Positions 3,401-44,873 of a stretch of 64,000 bases of DNA are shown here, one piece after another; positions within the stretch are counted from its first letter, which is position 1, and the number at the start of each line of letters is the position of its first letter. Position numbers and translations under genes: made by a program. Origin of the DNA: Iphione sp. A-MEVVRFRX5 (Eukaryota); NCBI GenBank assembly GCA_976226885.1, contig OZ320323.1, positions 13,578,001-13,642,000 of the forward strand, in the 5' to 3' direction. Below the pieces are notes generated by a model. The model was not told where the DNA came from. It did no database searches and saw only the letters and a list, made by a program, of their open reading frames with translations.

Positions 3401-6400
3401 CCTTCTTCTCCGTCTCCAGTGGAAGGTGGTCTATGAAATGCTCAAGGTACGCCCTGAAAGATTTGTCGATTGCATCTAATCATTCCAAAGGTTTGAAACT
3501 TGAAGGAAAAAACTCCACAAATTACATTGCTGTGGCTATAAACAATGTTGAAAAAAAAGAAAACAAGATTTAAGCAACGGTGTTGGTAGATCATTTTGGA
3601 AAAGTGCTTTCCATAAAAACGGCCACCATCATGATGGAAGATGTAATTTTGCTTCCTTTAATTTTGCAAAAACAAAAACGAAAATAAAGTCTACAACACT
3701 ACCATGGTCTCTTGGATGTAACATACCTGCCAAACTGGGGACAGTGATCCAAATAGTCAGCAGCGACCTGCCATAGACTGCAACAGGAGGTTACAACAGA
3801 ATCAGTTTGAGTGGTGCTGCTTCATGACAAGCCACAAGCTGGCAACTCAGTTAAAGCTGAGTGGATCATGTCACGGATATGGCTAAGCAAGTCTACCTTC
3901 GCACATCGCATGCGAAGGGGAGTGTAATGCGTATGTTTTGGTGCCTGACTGTTGGTCAGTGTGCAAGTACTGTATGTGTAGCAGCCCGTGTCAAGCGAAA
4001 CTGACTGGCTACCTATTTACCGCACAAGAGCATGCAGACAAACTGACATATGTTAATATCTGATTCGTGTCTACAGTCTTCAAGATATGGTATCATCAGG
4101 ACTCCATTGTGGGAGAACATGCTCCGTAAATTTAAGAGCATCAGGTCGAATCCTGATGCCATATTCTCAATCAACGAGTGAAAAAAAGTTCTGTGTTCAA
4201 GCACACAGGACTTGTTGTATCATCACCATCAGCGCCCCTCACCATGCTCATCAAGTCTATGATATAGGGAGAAGGAAATGACAGAATAAAAGAGAAAAAA
4301 AGGCAATACGATACCTTAAAACAACCAAAGATTACGGGGAAAGGTGGACACTAACATTGTGGATGCAGAGATGTAAGGTTGGAGACATACCTTTGATGGG
4401 ACATGAGGCCTGTTGCATATTCTAGGAGGAGAAATTCGCGAAGGTTGGACCCGAAGCTGGAACAGAAGATCAGTTATTCTATTAACTATTCACTGGATGC
4501 TCCTTTCTCAATGCTAAAAAAAGGTTTACTTTCTGGACACTACAGTATCCGACACAAAGGTTCTGGAATCTGAAGTGTCCACACTACAGCCAAAGTGTAT
4601 ACATACAAAGAAGAATACGGTTTGCTCTGTTCGGATTCAAGCAAGATTGCAGAATCGCCTGATAGCTGAGGCGTGTATTTTTTATTTTTTTTTAAACTTT
4701 TATTTACACTGGAGCTGAAATATACAATATGTATTTGGGATCCAGTTTATACCATCTCTTGATACTTGTATGATATTTACAGGTGATCACGACAATATGG
4801 GATGAGATCAATGGTAAGGTGACTCATGGGCTGATGGTGCCAGTTCATAGTGTCGGTCGTGTTGGTGTTCTGAGTACATAATTCCTGACATTACTTGACA
4901 GGATATCATCCTGTTTGAAGATGTGATTTGAAAGGGTATCACCCTTCTTTCATATCAGCTGCTTCGTCACCACTTCCAAGGGAATCTCCCTGTTCGTGGA
5001 TCAGTTACTTCATTACGGTACCCGCAAGTTGGCTTTGACCGAACACTGTAGCCTACGCATTTTCAGTTTACGCAATAATTGTTTCTTTGGGAGATTTGTA
5101 TCGGTTATTGATAGTTTCTTCTTCCAATAGCAACTAAACCTGTACTGTATTGAATCTCTGAAACGTTCCTTGTGAGGAGCATCATACAACATCAGTCCCC
5201 TGCGGTTTCCTTCTCTAGTCATACGTCCCCCTCTATCAGTTCTTTCAGATAGTCGAAAGATCCCTAGGCCAACCCTCACCAACGTTGTGTCTACATAGCT
5301 TCTAACCTCATTTTCCACAATATCCCGGTCTATCCTCCTATTCATTGCAACGGCATATATCCTTCGTCGTAGCGTAACATATTTCATGTATGTGCTAGAT
5401 GTCTGAGAGCTATATAAGAACAGTCCGTAATTTATCACCGACAGTATCATAGTTGTCGCCAGTCTGGTTGCCAAATCTTTGCTCAAGTACTTCCTAATTT
5501 TCACAAAATGCTGCAGTTTATTATACCCTTTATGTACTAGCCTTTGCAAATGGTTTCTATACGATAGTTTCGTGTCCAAGATAATCCCTAAATAATTGAA
5601 TGATTTCACAGTCTCAAGCAGTCGATTGTCATATTTTAGATTCACATCTGTGGTGTTTGTTCGATACCCAAATTTCATAACCTTTGTTTTAGCAATGCTT
5701 ACTTTAATCTTATTGTTGTGGGACCATAGTTTCAGACGATTCATATCATGTTGTAGGCCCTCTATCGCATCATTTAATGTCACTCCGTGAGCAATCAGAA
5801 CCAAGTCATCAGCGTACAATATCACATCTGAGTCTAGTATACTGTGTACTAGGTCATTAATATATATGACAAAGAGCAACGGACCTAAAATTGATCCTTG
5901 CGGCACACCGCACGTAACATCCATGGTACTAGACAGAGTTCCATTAACCTTGGTTATCTGTTTCCGCCCCATCAGGTATGCCTTTATCCACACATAATAA
6001 CTCCCTAGATGGTAGTCCTGTAGCTTCCTTAGTAAAATTTCATGGCACACACTATCGAACGCCTTCTCAAAATCGATGAAAGCCCCCACGACGTGTTCCC
6101 GATTATTCAGATAGCCATGTATTAGTTGATTTAATTTACTGACAGCCATTTCTGTACCACGGCCTCGTCTGAAACCATATTGTTGTCTACAGAACAAATC
6201 ATTATTCTCAAAATGGTCATATTCTAGTGTGGACTATACGTTCTAATACCTTGTTAACCATATTTAGAATGCTAATAGGGCGATAATTACTTGGTTGATT
6301 TGGATCCCCTTTTTTGTATATTGGCGTAACTACAGTACACTCCCTGCCTGCGGACACGTCTCGGAAGCGGACACGTCTACAATGCGGACGATTTTACGCA

Positions 6401-7008
6401 GAACGAAATGATTTGCTATTGTTTCCTATTATAAGCTGACGTCTCTAATGCGGACGGCAAAATTTAGTGAACGCCTCCCTGTGGACGAGGTGTTGTCGCA
6501 CGAATTTGGGGCTCCAGGGAAACCACAGAAGTGCTTTTCAAAGGTAGATATGAATAACCCCTGTGGACGAGGTGTTGTTGCGCGAATTTGGGGCTCCAGG
6601 GAGACTACAGAAGTGCTTTTCAAAGGTAGATATTGATAACCCCTGTGGACGAGGTGTTGTCGCGCGAATTTGGGGCTCCAGGGAGGCTCCAGAAGTCATT
6701 TTTCAAAGGTAGATATGAATAACCCCAGTGGACAAGGTGTTGTCGGGCAAATTTGAGGCTCCAGGGAGGCTCCAGAAGTCATTTTTTAACTGGTCAATTT
6801 CAGTACTTTTAGGACTTTTACTGGTCAAATTCAGTACTTTTAGGACTTTAACTGGTCAAATTCAGGACTTTTAGGACTTTTACTGGTCAAATTCAGTACT
6901 TTTTGGACTTAAACTGATTGAATTAATTTATAGAGAGAGAGGGAGAAAGGGATTTCATTTTCTAGTTTGACCCCTCCTTAGGCGGGCAGATGTGCATGTA
7001 TATCCTTT

Positions 7009-7064
<56 letters not shown>

Positions 7065-10000
7065 GGAGTTCATTTTCTAGTTTGAACCCCTGGTCCGATC
7101 TCCAATGCGGACGCGTCTACAATGCGGACGATTTGAAGCAGAACAGAGGGTGTCCGGAATCAAGAGAGTGTACTGTATTCCCAACTTAAACTCCTCCGGT
7201 ATTATGCCTTGCCATAGGGATTGAGTGAACATGTGCCGGAATACCTCAACGTTTCGTGTCATAAAAATTTTTAATAATGCCGACGGTAATATACTAATCC
7301 CACTCGATTTGTTACCATGCATCGATCTTATCGATTGTAGTACTGTTTCTTTAGTCAACCCTTCATAGTTTAGGCGGCAGTCAATCCTGTTTTCCTGATG
7401 TTTGTAAGGTTCTTTCATATCCTCTAATATTCTCGAACCAACTGTCGCAAAGAAACAGTTTATCTTGTCTGCTGCTTGCTTGTCAGTCATTATTTTCTCA
7501 TCGTCTGATCGCATCAGTATCTCCGTATAAACTTGACTGTAGCCAAAATTCCTTTTTATCACTTGCCAAAAACGGGTTGGATTTGTTTTATTTGCTACCA
7601 ACTCCCCTTCAATATACCCTTTCCTCGATATAGTTAGCTGTTTCCTAACATTGGACATAGCAATGTGATGCTCTAGCTTGCACTCCAACTTACCAGTTTT
7701 GTTGTATTCTTCCCTGATACGATTTCTTTTAGAAATTAATTCGTGTAACTCCCTAGTCATCCAAGGCACTGTCGTTCTGGGGCACCGCCCCGTCTTTACA
7801 GGACATAGTTTATTAACTAGGTGGACTAGGTAGTAGTATATTACATACCAAATTTGTTGTACATCGTTCATTGCTAGTAAGGAGGTTTGCTCGAAGCTAG
7901 TTGATTCCTTAACAAATGTCTCTTCTGTCAGTCGCTTTTTGGATCTATATTTACGCTTCACCCTATCTAGCCGTATACGTGTTTCCAGAGTTATTGTGAT
8001 TTTTCTATGATCACTAAAGCCGCTGTTACTAACATTTATATGTAAATGTTTAGGTAGGATATTTCCCAGGACTAAGTCAATTGTACTTGAGGACAGTTTT
8101 CCTATTCTGGTCAGCTCCGTTACATACTGTGTTAATAGATTCTCAGCAGCAAACTCCTTCAATTTTCTGGTAAAAACGTTAGCTTTGTTTGCCCAATTTA
8201 TGTTATAATCCCCCATTATCAGAATATTAGTACGCCTATTTTCTCCTCGTAATTCAGCAATGTCAGATCTTAATTCTTCTAAGCCCTGTGATACATTCCC
8301 CCGTGGCGGCCTGTATATATTGCCAAGTAGAATCCGTTCATGGTTTTGTTCAATCAATAACCATTGCCTCTCCAAATGTTCCGTTATCTTGCTAGTATTC
8401 GATACGTAATGGGCACTTTCAGATAATTTATTGGTAACGTATATCACCAGCCCCCCTCCTCGTTTACATTTCCTATCCAGACGTATGCATCTATAACCAG
8501 TTATCTCCAGTAAACTCGCAGGTATAGAAGATTGCAACCAGCTCTCACTAAAGAAGTAAATATCAGATTTTGTTGTGTTAATCATGCTCAATAGTTCCTC
8601 CCAGTTCTTGAGAATACTCCGTACATTAAGAATTTCAATATTTAGCGATATCATCTAAAGGATAGCCAAATTGTATGGTCCCACGATGTTAGGCGATGAG
8701 ATGAAAGCCCACCCGGATGAATAAAGTTGAGTGGTCCAAAGAAAAGGAAATCAGTATGCCGTAACATACAGGATAGAAATGACACCCGTTTCACAGCAAT
8801 TTGATGAACACGTGTTCCACCAATAAAAGGACATAGTTAAACAATTGCATCTCATCCACAAATGTAGTATGTGTTGTGGTAACATATATAGCGCACAATC
8901 AACCAGTGTAGCTTCCCCTTTATTTATATAGCACAATATACTGCTAGCGTAACAGGAGAACACAAACAATCAATATAGGGTATTTTCAGTGTCCGAATCA
9001 GTGGATCAAATAACACCAAGTGCAGTAATGTTCTTAGGTACGAGAGTTGTTTGTGCTTACTAAAGCATCATGATCTGAGTTAAACTTCTACTTATCTGAA
9101 TTGTTGTAAGTAGCGGTAGTATAGGTAGTCCTCAAATTCATAGAGTCTGCGTAGAGCGTTCTCAATACGGGTAACCGCTACTGGAACCCATATCGGCCGC
9201 AAATGACACCCATCGCGAAGTCGCGCGTATCGGTGCCTCCATCGTCCATTATGCCGACTGTGGATGGTTCTCATAGTCCAAGGCACAGGTACTCCGTTTG
9301 AGCCGTTCAGCTCCACGATTCTTCTGTTTAGGACGATCACTAGCCTGTTTATCAACAGTTGTATGCGTCGAGCAGAGCCGCCCCTATTCATGTAGCCATT
9401 AAGTTGATAGTTGCTCGTCGCGTAGTCCATACCAAACACCGTCGATATCATTATGTAACTGCCAGGGAACATATTCCTCAGCCTTTCGTAGGCAACCTGA
9501 TAGTCATGCATTATTTCCGATACTGCAGTATCCACCCGTTGGTACCTTGGTATGACATATCGAGTTGTTTGCCTGGGTCCACGAGACCGAAACAAATTTG
9601 TCATGTTATTTCCGCCAACCCATAGCACCACCGCCCACGGTACATATGGGACCAGTGTTCCCTCAAAGCGATTTATCACATCCAATATCCTTGCTCCGGG
9701 ATAGAAGTATACCGACACTCTCCATCTTGGATCTCTATAGTAACCAGCAGTTCCTCTCCCATGGCTGCTAGACAAAATAATTACTCGGCGGACCATTTCT
9801 GAGTTTCTGCGTAGACATGAGTCGCACGTGTGCAGATATGTTCGGTCACCGGCAGTACTGCAATTTCAAATCTCGCGCATGCGTATATTTGTTTTTCAGA
9901 CAACACTGTTCTCATTCAGGCGTAGCCACTCTGGTGTCCGACATCCAAAAATAGCCAGACGCACTATTCTGTTTCCATCTGTGGGTCTGCTGTTCCAATT

Positions 10001-13000
10001 AGGTCCCGCCTGACCTCCTCTAGGAGTTTTCCGAGCATATTTTGTCCAGCATACGTTCCTTCGGTAATACTCTTTGATTGTGCTTCGACACCAACCCCCC
10101 AATAGGGATGCTTGCTTGCCTCAATTATAATATCCTTCCCTGTGGATATAAGTGTCTCGCGCAATTTGTCATTTTGGGCAAACTTGTGTCCCAGTATATC
10201 TTTCATAATGGCACGCTTCTCATCCTTCCACGGTTCACTGCTCTTGATCTGTTTTCTTACTCTCCTGAGTTTTTCGTTATCCGTGGTCTTTTCAATTAAT
10301 TCAGCAAGTTCATTTTTACCATGCTTAGTCGCTTTGGCCCAAGTGTAGGCCTGTTCTGCTGAGCTAAATTCCGTTTCACACCAGTCAATTTTACTGCTAG
10401 TCAAATTCGAGAACGGGGCTCCCTCTCCCTGGACTATCACCTTTCCATCCTTGGCCTGTTGTCTGGCATTAGCCAGGCTGTATTCCTCCGGCAATTTGTC
10501 CAGGGAGTCATAACGATACCATCTTTTATCGATTTCAATACGGTTCTCTCTTAATCTCACTGCCTTTGTTGGGGCAACCTCCTTCACCCTCTTGGCAATC
10601 GCTTGTAGGTCCATTCTCACCTTTCTCTCTTCAGGCGTTTCATCGTTGTTGAGCCAAATTTCTCTTCCTTTGAGTTTTCCTCTTGCTGCCATCACTTTCT
10701 CTTTCGCACACATTCTGGTAAATCGTACAAACATCCCTCGTCTTCCACCTTTGTCCTTTTTCGTTGTTCTGTACGCCAGATCAATGTCATACTCATATAT
10801 GTCAGTGCCCATGGTATCAAATAGGGCAACGCACATAGCCACACACGATTCCCCAGGTATTTCGTCAAGTCCATCAATGTATAGATTGTACTTGCGATTA
10901 AGGCGGTCACGACTAGTCTTACTTGCCCGAGTGTTGTCGGGGGCAACTTCTTTTCCAGATATCATTATAGCTGACATCATTTCCGCTTTAAGCTTCTTGT
11001 TTTCTGCTTTGAGGTTATCAACCTCACGCCGTAGTGCAGCAATCTCGCTGGTATTGTTTTTGACTGTATCCACTGTACTTTTGAGTGTTTCGTTCACTTC
11101 CTTCACCTCCTCTCTGATGCGTTTTGAGATATCGATCTGCTCTTGTGAGCTACGTTGCAACTCAGCAAACATCTCCTCCATAGATAGCGGGCCGCTTGAC
11201 CTTTTGTTATCAGTTCCATTTCCCGCATCACTGCGTACAGTGTCTTCACCTGTGTCATTTGGCCCCCGTGGGCGTTTCCTAGATGTTGAACGGCGGCGGT
11301 CGGAGGCACTTACACTATCAAGGTCTCTTCTTGGGCGTTCTGCAGTTTCCATCCTTATCAGGTTGTATTCACATATACACCTAAGCGATTTCGCGGTGAA
11401 TGTTTCCACAGACTGTGTGTACTAGAGCGTGCTGCTGTCCGTAGGTACCCTTCTATTTATAGCACATTCAACGTCTCTACGTGTGCACCGGTGGGCCCTG
11501 CGCAGGTAACATTTGAAAGTTACTCAATTATCGCTTTCTTCAACAAACTTTCCTTTACCTCAGGCAAACGTGCGTTATTAGCACTTTTCTTACCGTCAGG
11601 CCAGTCACATTGAGTTAAACTTGGTATTCACGGTTTTTGTTTTGTCCGGCAATTCTTATAAAATGTAATGCTCACCTTCTTGTCTGCGAGCGGTGATCGG
11701 GACAACCGTACTCACCTAGGCGCCATTGATACCGGCGCATTCGCTAACGCCCCGGGCGCCGGCGGCCGACAGGGTCGTCTCGCCCAGCGCGCAAGCGCCT
11801 AGCGTGCCGGTAGTGGTTGACCCTACTGAGTCACCACAGGCAGCTACCACAGGTATCATGGACACACCAACAGACACAGTACTGAGGGAGCATTCTACCA
11901 CCTCTGTACTGGTCTGTTTAGTCTTTTTAGCAGATCTACCAGAGGAAGATCTCTTGCCTCTCTTCTGCTGCCTGGGCTGCTCTACTGGCATGCCCATGAT
12001 AGAGGAGGCCAAGTCCATGATACCACAAATACAAAAGCAATAAACACAAAATCAACAAAGCAAAGTTGAAAAAATACTCCCTTTGGTGATCCTGATAGCA
12101 ATAGAAATAGCAGAAAGAAAGAACAGTGACAGAACAGTAAGAATTCTAAGACAGGTCTGAACTGGGTGACTGCTAGACTAAAAGTGACAACAACCAAGAT
12201 GGCTGACTGTGGTGGCGCCACTGGGCTGTATCTCAGGGAGACACCTAGTGTCCTATGCTGGTACTAAAGTTTTGTTCTGTCTAGAGTCTTTTAAAGATTC
12301 TGGGATCTCTCCTATTGTGAAGGTCTATATGCATGGGAATATGAGGCTTTGTCAGGTTCTTGGGTCTCCCTAAAAGCCAAGAGGTGTGCAGAGAAATATA
12401 ATGCTTTGTCCCATTAGCATTCAATACAAACTACTAAACGATACATTTAAGATATAATCACTTACTTCAGTGTTTGCGACTCCAGCATATCACAGTGATG
12501 CAACAGGTCTGTCAGGTGAGCCACAAACCACCAGCTCCCGCAACTCGAGCTGAATTAATAACATAAAACAAATCTTGAATCATATGACAATTCTTCTTCA
12601 TTATATATGTTAACTTATAACCCAAATAAAAAGGGTCTTACACTTATTTCATGACGATGTTATTTTCAAAACAATGCTAGAATGTTTGCCTACCGACCTA
12701 TACTCAAACAAATCTGACAGGAGGGCAAAATGAATGAGAAAACTATAGGATACCACTGTCTATCGAAGGACACGGGCACTGGGTGATTTGGTAAGTGGCA
12801 TTCCTAACCCACCTGGCCTCCTTGATAACCTGATGAATGTCAAACTCGAGTGTAGCCAGCAGGATGTGGTCCCAAGCCTGTAGATGGGCACTGCCACCGT
12901 ACGCATTGATGCAGAACTGGGCGTGGTACTGGACATCGATGGCCTTCACGGATGGGTTGTGGTAGAGTAGGCGTGTCACCAGCATGCAATACCAGCTGCC

Positions 13001-18394: not shown

Positions 18395-44873
<26,479 letters not shown>

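Follow-up and report, generated by a model that had tools for sequence, protein, structure and literature searches.

The window analysed here, 64,000 nucleotides of Iphione sp. A-MEVVRFRX5 (contig OZ320323.1, positions 13,578,001 to 13,642,000), carries on its minus strand a long interspersed nuclear element (LINE) with three open reading frames (ORFs), the last of which, ORF2, encodes the endonuclease and the reverse transcriptase (RT). We find that the extreme 5' end of this element and of its relatives encodes a conserved micro-ORF and pairs with a site shortly before ORF2, and we propose that the family probably translates ORF2 from its unspliced genomic RNA by ribosome shunt. The conserved micro-ORF and the 3-kb pairing are real; our observations comprise the micro-ORF itself, complementarity in two helices, co-variation on the sense strand, the position of the partner site and an AU-rich tract beyond it. 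An earlier note on this DNA had proposed that an intron from 11715 to 8655 joins an upstream frame, ORF0, to ORF2. Our analysis bears out two of its premises, namely that some special means must bring ribosomes past two ORFs to ORF2 and that the 5' end and the ORF2 leader are linked; a route via ORF0 and an intron is not, as far as the clade of the window copy is concerned.

A conserved micro-ORF at the 5' end

Relatives of the element were assembled from an ORF1 search with 92 scored relatives and fetched as 60 loci via ORF1 (one of them mis-oriented and dropped), 38 via ORF2 and 40 added later as a held-out set, each ORF2 locus search taking the best 150 of over 6000 candidates. The working clades were read from a midpoint-rooted RT tree with 83 rows; they are N (that of the window copy), N2, M, D, F and G, loci without an RT core being assigned by similarity; the relatives are partly dependent through kinship. 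The features at the two ends of the pairing are the following.

About 11727, minus strand: 5' end of the LINE, which continues with ORF1 (with NADAR), an SGNH esterase ORF and ORF2, in that order
11712 to 11726, minus strand: micro-ORF ATG GCG CCT AGG TGA (MAPR*)
11718 to 11727, minus strand: 5' arm of helix H1, overlapping the micro-ORF
11684 to 11689, minus strand: 5' arm of helix H2, within a conserved CGCTC block
8791 to 8796, minus strand: 3' arm of helix H2
8778 to 8787, minus strand: 3' arm of helix H1, pairing with the micro-ORF (G-U included); putative landing region

A motif search that made no demand for a stop codon located the 5' ends of 47 of the 79 ORF1-bearing loci, duplicates dropped; when clade N 5' ends were sought by pattern, just two loci came up, both already known. 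All 47 ends begin with ATG GC, and 41 reach an in-frame stop within six codons, whereas the two remaining frames do so in 12 and 9 ends and shuffled sequences in 7.3 (maximum 16); within nine codons the count rises to 46 of 47. Stops of all three types are used (TGA 25, TAG 12, TAA 9). The ATGGCG start also resembles the TISU/YY1 element, described as active in transcription and also in translation initiation when leaders are very short (PMC2518114).

At this very place the earlier note had read the end of ORF0 followed by a consensus splice donor. The TAG at 11718-11716 and the GTGAGT from 11715 are indeed both present; in the window copy, GTGAG reads G-TGA-G and supplies the stop of the four-codon micro-ORF. 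Strong donors, defined as 8 of 9 U1 matches or better, occur in just 2/7 elements of clade N and 0/19 of clade M (2/4 in N2, 5/8 in D, 2/7 in F and 0/2 in G), so that a conserved donor does not stand. GGTGA is conserved in clade N as the stop, and the 'donor' of that clade appears better explained as a stop codon.

Long-range pairing between the 5' end and the ORF2 leader

The ORF2 spacer contains a site complementary to the first 14 nt of the element, and the sequence immediately 5' of this site is complementary to the CGCTC block; across elements, the partner lies 130-330 nt upstream of ORF2 and about 3 kb from the 5' end. Under a contiguous two-helix score, devised after plain duplex energy had proved noisy, the top-ranked partner lay in the zone 60-360 nt upstream of the ORF2 AUG in 33/44 elements, where 2.1 were expected, ranking first in 6/7 members of clade N, 2/4 of N2, 13/19 of M, 5/5 of D, 5/7 of F and 2/2 of G; all seven partner sites of clade N lie at -128 to -142. 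Cognate partners beat swapped ones in 19 of 21 pairs, most of which were tree neighbours, and permutation p values for co-variation were 0.0008 in N, <1e-4 in M, 0.009 in D and 0.0025 in F.

The co-variation can be followed column by column in H2 of clade D, whose rows were anchored on an invariant core (three rows were unanchorable, and one was mis-anchored but kept). Among 22 distinct rows, 331 of 352 cells are paired, with 50 double changes in 11 columns, against a mean of 291 paired cells and 14 double changes when rows are swapped (maximum 314 and 33). These cells include 26 G-U pairs versus a single C-A, an asymmetry that points to pairing in the sense RNA. The arrangement recurs in the held-out clade D-type loci: 23 of the 40 had the full 5' region, and in 23/23 an AUG micro-ORF stops 7-13 nt before a helix of 13-20 bp, where 2.04 were expected. 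The tract beyond the 3' arms is 58-92% AU in the held-out D loci and 53-78% in clade N, both given as raw percentages.

A ribosome shunt as the probable route to ORF2

How LINEs start translation of ORF2 has been called an open question (PMC3894237). In cauliflower mosaic virus (CaMV), rice tungro bacilliform virus (RTBV) and foamy virus, ribosomes shunt from a short ORF that stops about 6 nt before a basal stem to a UA-rich landing site (PMC2241666, PMC5902531), and it is because the micro-ORF, its stop shortly before a helix in clade D and the AU-rich tract match this configuration that we read the pairing as a probable shunt structure. The likeness to CaMV, RTBV and prototype foamy virus, as these sources present them, is that a short 5' ORF stops, in clade D just before, a helix with a distant arm, an AU-rich tract follows the 3' arm, and the peptide and arm sequences are free to vary; the LINE differs in that its loop measures about 3 kb and holds two genes, as opposed to a viral leader of 0.5 kb, in that its short ORF itself pairs with the putative landing region, and in being an animal LINE. 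Duck hepatitis B virus is likewise reported to make its Pol, an RT, from the unspliced pregenome by a shunt over the upstream core gene (PMC5902531), although its take-off site is undefined and that source describes no co-varying long-range helix.

The proposed course of events draws on two further features of clade N.

11454 to 11461, minus strand: TATA box, 109 nt upstream of ORF1 (6/7 in clade N, 0.43 expected)
8651 to 8767, minus strand: 38-codon upstream ORF (uORF) ending in an AUGA over the ORF2 start (9/10 in clade N)

An internal promoter would set the start of transcription a few bases ahead of ATGGCG. A ribosome would translate the micro-ORF of 2-9 codons, thereby opening H1, and halt before H2; the released 40S subunit would then cross the base of the stem, skipping a loop of about 2.6-3.7 kb with ORF1 and SGNH, and land on the freed partner of H1. 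In clade N, the 40S would subsequently either skip the 38-codon uORF or reinitiate at its AUGA stop-start. ORF1 and SGNH would be made from shorter RNAs started at internal promoters. Each clade N leader contains 2-6 further AUGs before ORF1, so that a scanning ribosome would not easily arrive there, which together with the TATA box in 6/7 members makes it likely that ORF1 has its own RNA; the TATA box (0/17 in clade M) is likely the promoter of an ORF1 mRNA that would not include the 5' arms. Clade D has a conserved donor, branch point and acceptor next to this clamp, and splicing would likely operate there as well. LINE ORF2 proteins show cis preference, and a shunt would let ORF2 work in cis on the full-length RNA, an advantage that translation from a spliced mRNA could not give. 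Taken together, we lean towards the view that a large animal LINE family makes its RT in cis by a pararetrovirus-type shunt over about 3 kb and two genes, one clade having added splicing at the same clamp.

Several observations weigh against this view. Under plain duplex energy over 50 nt, only 11/44 elements have their best site in the zone (0/7 in clade N and 1/19 in clade M); even under the two-helix score the partner is not ranked first in 11/44 elements, and the window copy pairs weakly (H1 of 10 bp, H2 of 6 bp), its site ranking 3rd of 39. The relatives in the co-variation tests are not fully independent, relatedness having been incompletely removed, and the held-out copies include four near-duplicate pairs. 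In clade N, the micro-ORF stops about 22 nt before an H2 of 5-8 bp, not 6-13 nt before it, and 6 of the 23 held-out copies lack the first ATG, each keeping a second in-frame one. The micro-ORF is itself paired, unlike in the viral configuration, and its AUG may sit too near the cap. The first AUG past the landing region is that of the uORF, 12 nt on, so that a further step is needed; and the splice signals of clade D make it plain that such a clamp is compatible with splicing.

The micro-ORF and the two helices provide a concrete, mutable answer to how ORF2 translation starts, for which natural compensatory variants exist in dozens of lineages. Our literature search, with Repbase and most subscription journals outside its coverage, returned neither a shunt in a LINE nor a LINE that bears NADAR, nor any element with these three ORFs in this arrangement. 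If the proposal is true, shunting would extend from viruses to LINEs, with a loop several times longer than viral leaders; it would show how a three-gene element ties its RT to the full-length RNA, and it would make both routes to ORF2, shunt and splicing, comparable within one family.

The pairing as a possible packaging or reverse-transcription switch

An alternative to which we grant a small but appreciable chance is that the pairing is a packaging or reverse-transcription switch, which might conceal the 5' AUG, mark the genomic RNA or help the RT to finish, ORF2 being translated from a spacer-started RNA via the uORF and the AUGA overlap. This would accommodate the promoter-like motifs upstream of ORF1 and SGNH in clade N, the conservation of the uORF and the AUGA, and the 7 of 47 loci of N, N2 and M that have neither SGNH nor ORF1 upstream, as compared with 4 cut inside SGNH. 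It leaves unexplained, however, why a conserved micro-ORF ends 7-13 nt before a helix; moreover, the spacer alignment revealed no conserved promoter motif, and the truncation points are not sharp. The spacer-cut copies (L152, L155, L159, L161, L163, L164 and L165) seem over-represented, with seven in the spacer versus four in the longer SGNH ORF; the stem may stall the RT, or a spacer-started RNA may exist.

One of the two promoter-like motifs is the TATA box described above, and the other precedes the SGNH ORF.

9875 to 9882, minus strand: GCATGCGC motif upstream of the SGNH ORF (6/8 in clade N, 0.3 expected)

This motif, which we take to be NRF1-like, is a possible promoter element.

Proposed splicing in the window's clade and probable splicing in clade D

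It is unlikely, in our judgement, that the stem acts as an RNA bridge or switch bringing the 5' donor to an ORF2 acceptor so as to give an mRNA of micro-ORF plus ORF2. The acceptor side of this scheme, as proposed in the earlier note, lies in the following segment.

8655 to 8692, minus strand: proposed branch point and acceptor, in the window copy only

CTAAC at 8692-8688 and CCTTTAG/ATG at 8655/8654 are there as described, and the NADAR and SGNH ORFs do lie between the proposed donor and acceptor. Joining 11716 to 8654 would even give ATG GCG CCT AGA TGA, a four-codon frame ending in AUGA. The acceptor is nonetheless specific to this copy: CTRAY with an AG immediately 5' of the ORF2 ATG is found in 1/10 clade N members, namely the window itself, and ACTAAY in 0/10 of N, 0/6 of N2 and 2/34 of M. 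With neither donor nor acceptor conserved there, the intron loses its support in the window's clade; strong donors stand at 0/19 in clade M.

The situation is different in the distant clade D. There, ACTAAY occurs 105-130 nt before the endonuclease Asn in 9/9 members (0.63 expected) and in 35/37 held-out loci, TACTAAY being the branch point in 44/46; a YAG follows 18-36 nt past it in 40/44, and 15/23 have GT[AG]AGT behind the stop of the micro-ORF, where H2 has its base. These splice signals look selected, and the conservation of donor, branch point and acceptor makes splicing likely in clade D, where the intron model may hold after all; a bridge for splicing is likely in this clade and unlikely as the rule for that of the window. 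A strict scan for branch point plus acceptor, which allowed no AG in between, for that reason left every clade without enrichment, whereas a looser count found clade D. The first AG past the branch point is in fact GAG in 29/44 and AAG in 10/44 loci, that is, not YAG in 39/44, which speaks against splicing, as does the circumstance that TACTAAY could be a STAR-protein site. A TRAG[CT]T block is conserved 13-16 nt after the TACTAAY of clade D, between the branch point and the YAG.

Precedents for splicing exist, since RTBV shunts and splices from one short ORF (PMC2241666), and human L1 splices a donor in its 5' untranslated region (UTR) to give an ORF2 mRNA, SpORF2, much as proposed for clade D (PMC2896524, PMC5860796); a spliced ORF2 mRNA is hence already known and not the departure from LINEs that the earlier note had seen in it. 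L1 splicing, however, leaves spliced genomic copies and has been called a dead end (PMC5860796), whereas none was found here among the 38 + 40 ORF2 loci (78 in all). Loci without upstream ORFs number 14/38 and 7/37 in the two sets, and none joins the end of the micro-ORF to the leader; the 7/7 such loci among the clade D-type held-out copies kept the branch point. An internal deletion in L167, considered as a splice product, was rejected as it is not GT-AG.

The ORF2 leader in clade N

Clade N conserves three elements in the leader of ORF2: the uORF listed above and the two features below.

8706 to 8737, minus strand: conserved local hairpin in the ORF2 leader, which accounts for the TAG/TGG at about -88
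8679 to 8686, minus strand: TCRTGGGA motif, 30 nt upstream of the ORF2 AUG, in clade N only

With a uORF defined as at least 20 codons ending at most 9 nt from the ORF2 AUG, 9/10 clade N members have one of 36-50 codons that ends at or near AUGA, about 1.1 open frames being expected; a role at the protein level is unsupported, identity being 0.54, 0.51 and 0.55 by codon position in five members. The motif RTGGG[AC] occurs about 30 nt before the AUG in 9/10 members (0.28 expected) and in 0/50 loci of other clades, and it can be likened to the core of a termination upstream ribosome-binding site (TURBS; PMC11921876). As in TURBS (PMC11921876) and in the UAAUG stop-start of SART1 (PMC3894237, PMC5902531), a stop overlaps the ORF2 start, here as AUGA, and lies near the restart AUG in 9/10 of clade N; the upstream frame is here the 38-codon uORF and not ORF1, and a TURBS was rejected because neither 18S type of the assembly has the UCCCA loop that UGGGA would target. 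It is very doubtful that the spacer serves as a TURBS-like element for reinitiation or as an internal ribosome entry site (IRES), the latter having been suggested for spacers of LINEs (PMC3894237), with the 5' pairing doing no more than tune it, for the conserved hairpin, the TCRTGGGA motif and the AUGA overlap of clade N are set against the 18S types lacking a target, the motif's absence from the other clades, the want of any conserved P1-like stem around UGGGA and an Rfam search with nothing significant.

The two 18S rRNA types (L192 on C33 and L193 on C26) are 88% identical over aligned bases and measure 1810 and 2012 nt; one of them may be foreign DNA.

Origin of ORF0

The frame that the earlier note had taken as the first ORF of the LINE belongs to a different element.

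11731 to 12268, minus strand: 5' fragment of a DIRS-type retrotransposon, containing ORF0; repeat match, left flank AACTT

An own-genome search with 8300-12300 as the query scored 40 of 1248 candidates, and all of these save the window and one LINE relative matched 12270-11730 only. Within this sample, bases 12268-11731 are the start of another repeat at 88-97% identity, the match ending at 11731, and the left flank AACTT is common to 15/27 copies. ORF0 itself has its ATG at 12018 and is a truncated gag-like frame whose closing TAG (11718-11716) lies inside LINE sequence, where it is read in another frame; in other copies of the repeat, the sequence continues into tandem repeats and a gag-like frame. 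One copy (L190) carries an RT, a tyrosine recombinase (YR), inverted terminal repeats and an internal complementary region, which is the layout of the DIRS family. The source of ORF0 is a DIRS-type YR retrotransposon unrelated to the LINE. Conversely, the nearest LINE relative (contig C1; 74% identical, intact, with poly(A) and a 932-aa ORF2) likewise has its 5' end just a few bases ahead of this ATGGCG, within unrelated host DNA. ORF0 being foreign to the LINE, an ORF0-ORF2 fusion and a leaky stop both drop out. Neither the window nor the adjoining 10 kb yielded the remainder of the DIRS element; further short fragments of DIRS terminal repeats lie nearby, at 2158-2228 of the window and at L191:8178-8260.

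Layout of the window copy and its place among LINEs

The remaining parts of the window copy are listed here.

9964 to 11352, minus strand: ORF1, 462 aa, with a coiled coil, a weakly L1-ORF1p-like middle and a C-terminal NADAR
9092 to 9796, minus strand: stand-alone SGNH esterase ORF, 234 aa, with S10, G33, N62, D194 and H197 conserved
5013 to 8654, minus strand: ORF2, APE endonuclease and RT, interrupted by a miniature inverted-repeat transposable element (MITE) and by a frameshift near 6220
6333 to 7175: MITE insertion with terminal inverted repeats and TA duplication
4678 to 4704, minus strand: AATAAA and A-rich tail, 3' end of the LINE

The element is an APE-type LINE, as judged from its ORF2 with APE and RT, poly(A) end and 5' truncated copies, and the window copy is dead because its ORF2 carries the MITE and the frameshift; no convincing target-site duplication was found for it. 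Profile matches are strong for NADAR in the window ORF (Pfam E 1.9e-27) and for YbiA in ORF1 (E 8.8e-11), weak for L1 ORF1p (E 0.018) and, for the SGNH ORF with Lipase_GDSL_2, weaker than the curated cut-off (E 5.7e-4). Across the family the three-ORF order is kept down to about 30% ORF2 identity, the catalytic residues of the SGNH esterase hardly vary (S 57/59, G 57/59, N 54/59, D 59/59, H 58/59), and NADAR residues such as W417, G418, G435, N437 and R447 (window 9967-10410) are kept in 51-52 of 52 ORF1s. NADAR removes ADP-ribose from guanine in other systems, and a counter-defence role in ORF1 is possible; the domain is a separate lead on host-element conflict.

A homolog search with ORF1 found none, and database matches to ORF2 are at most 32% identical; the range outside this genome is drawn from Atlas look-alikes, with NADAR clusters of 415-489 aa at 0.92-0.94 and the phylum known for 1-3 members. 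The closest known designs are the CR1-group LINEs (L2, Crack, Daphne, CR1), which share an APE and RT ORF2 without RNase H, an L1-like ORF1 domain and the SGNH esterase, and in which SGNH and Tnp22-type ORF1 modules are known (PMC4120745, PMC3905857, PMC13343379); here, in distinction from these descriptions, both modules occur together as separate ORFs and NADAR is fused to ORF1. The structure of the family is itself unusual: the ORF1 matches fall into some 90 or more lineages of low copy number whose ORFs are largely intact, near-identical copies being almost absent.

Donor-like sequences occur elsewhere in clade N. Three copies (L092-L094) have a perfect CAG/GTAAGT in the 5' UTR, about 50 nt past the TATA box, and in 7/8 members AG-ATRAGT stands right behind the SGNH stop (window 9097-9089 and relatives), donor-like without the GT; it could bind U1 or be a GATA site. 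A second RT-bearing element (31574-35432, minus strand; RVT_1 E 3.6e-10), with no DNA-level match to the ORF0 repeat, has three long ORFs. Finally, a Nup85-like gene (window 13060-2283, minus strand) has both the DIRS fragment and the LINE in one of its introns, each in sense orientation and flanked by exon matches at 13060-12812 and 3479-3336, and the donor and acceptor of the window copy could influence splicing of this host gene.

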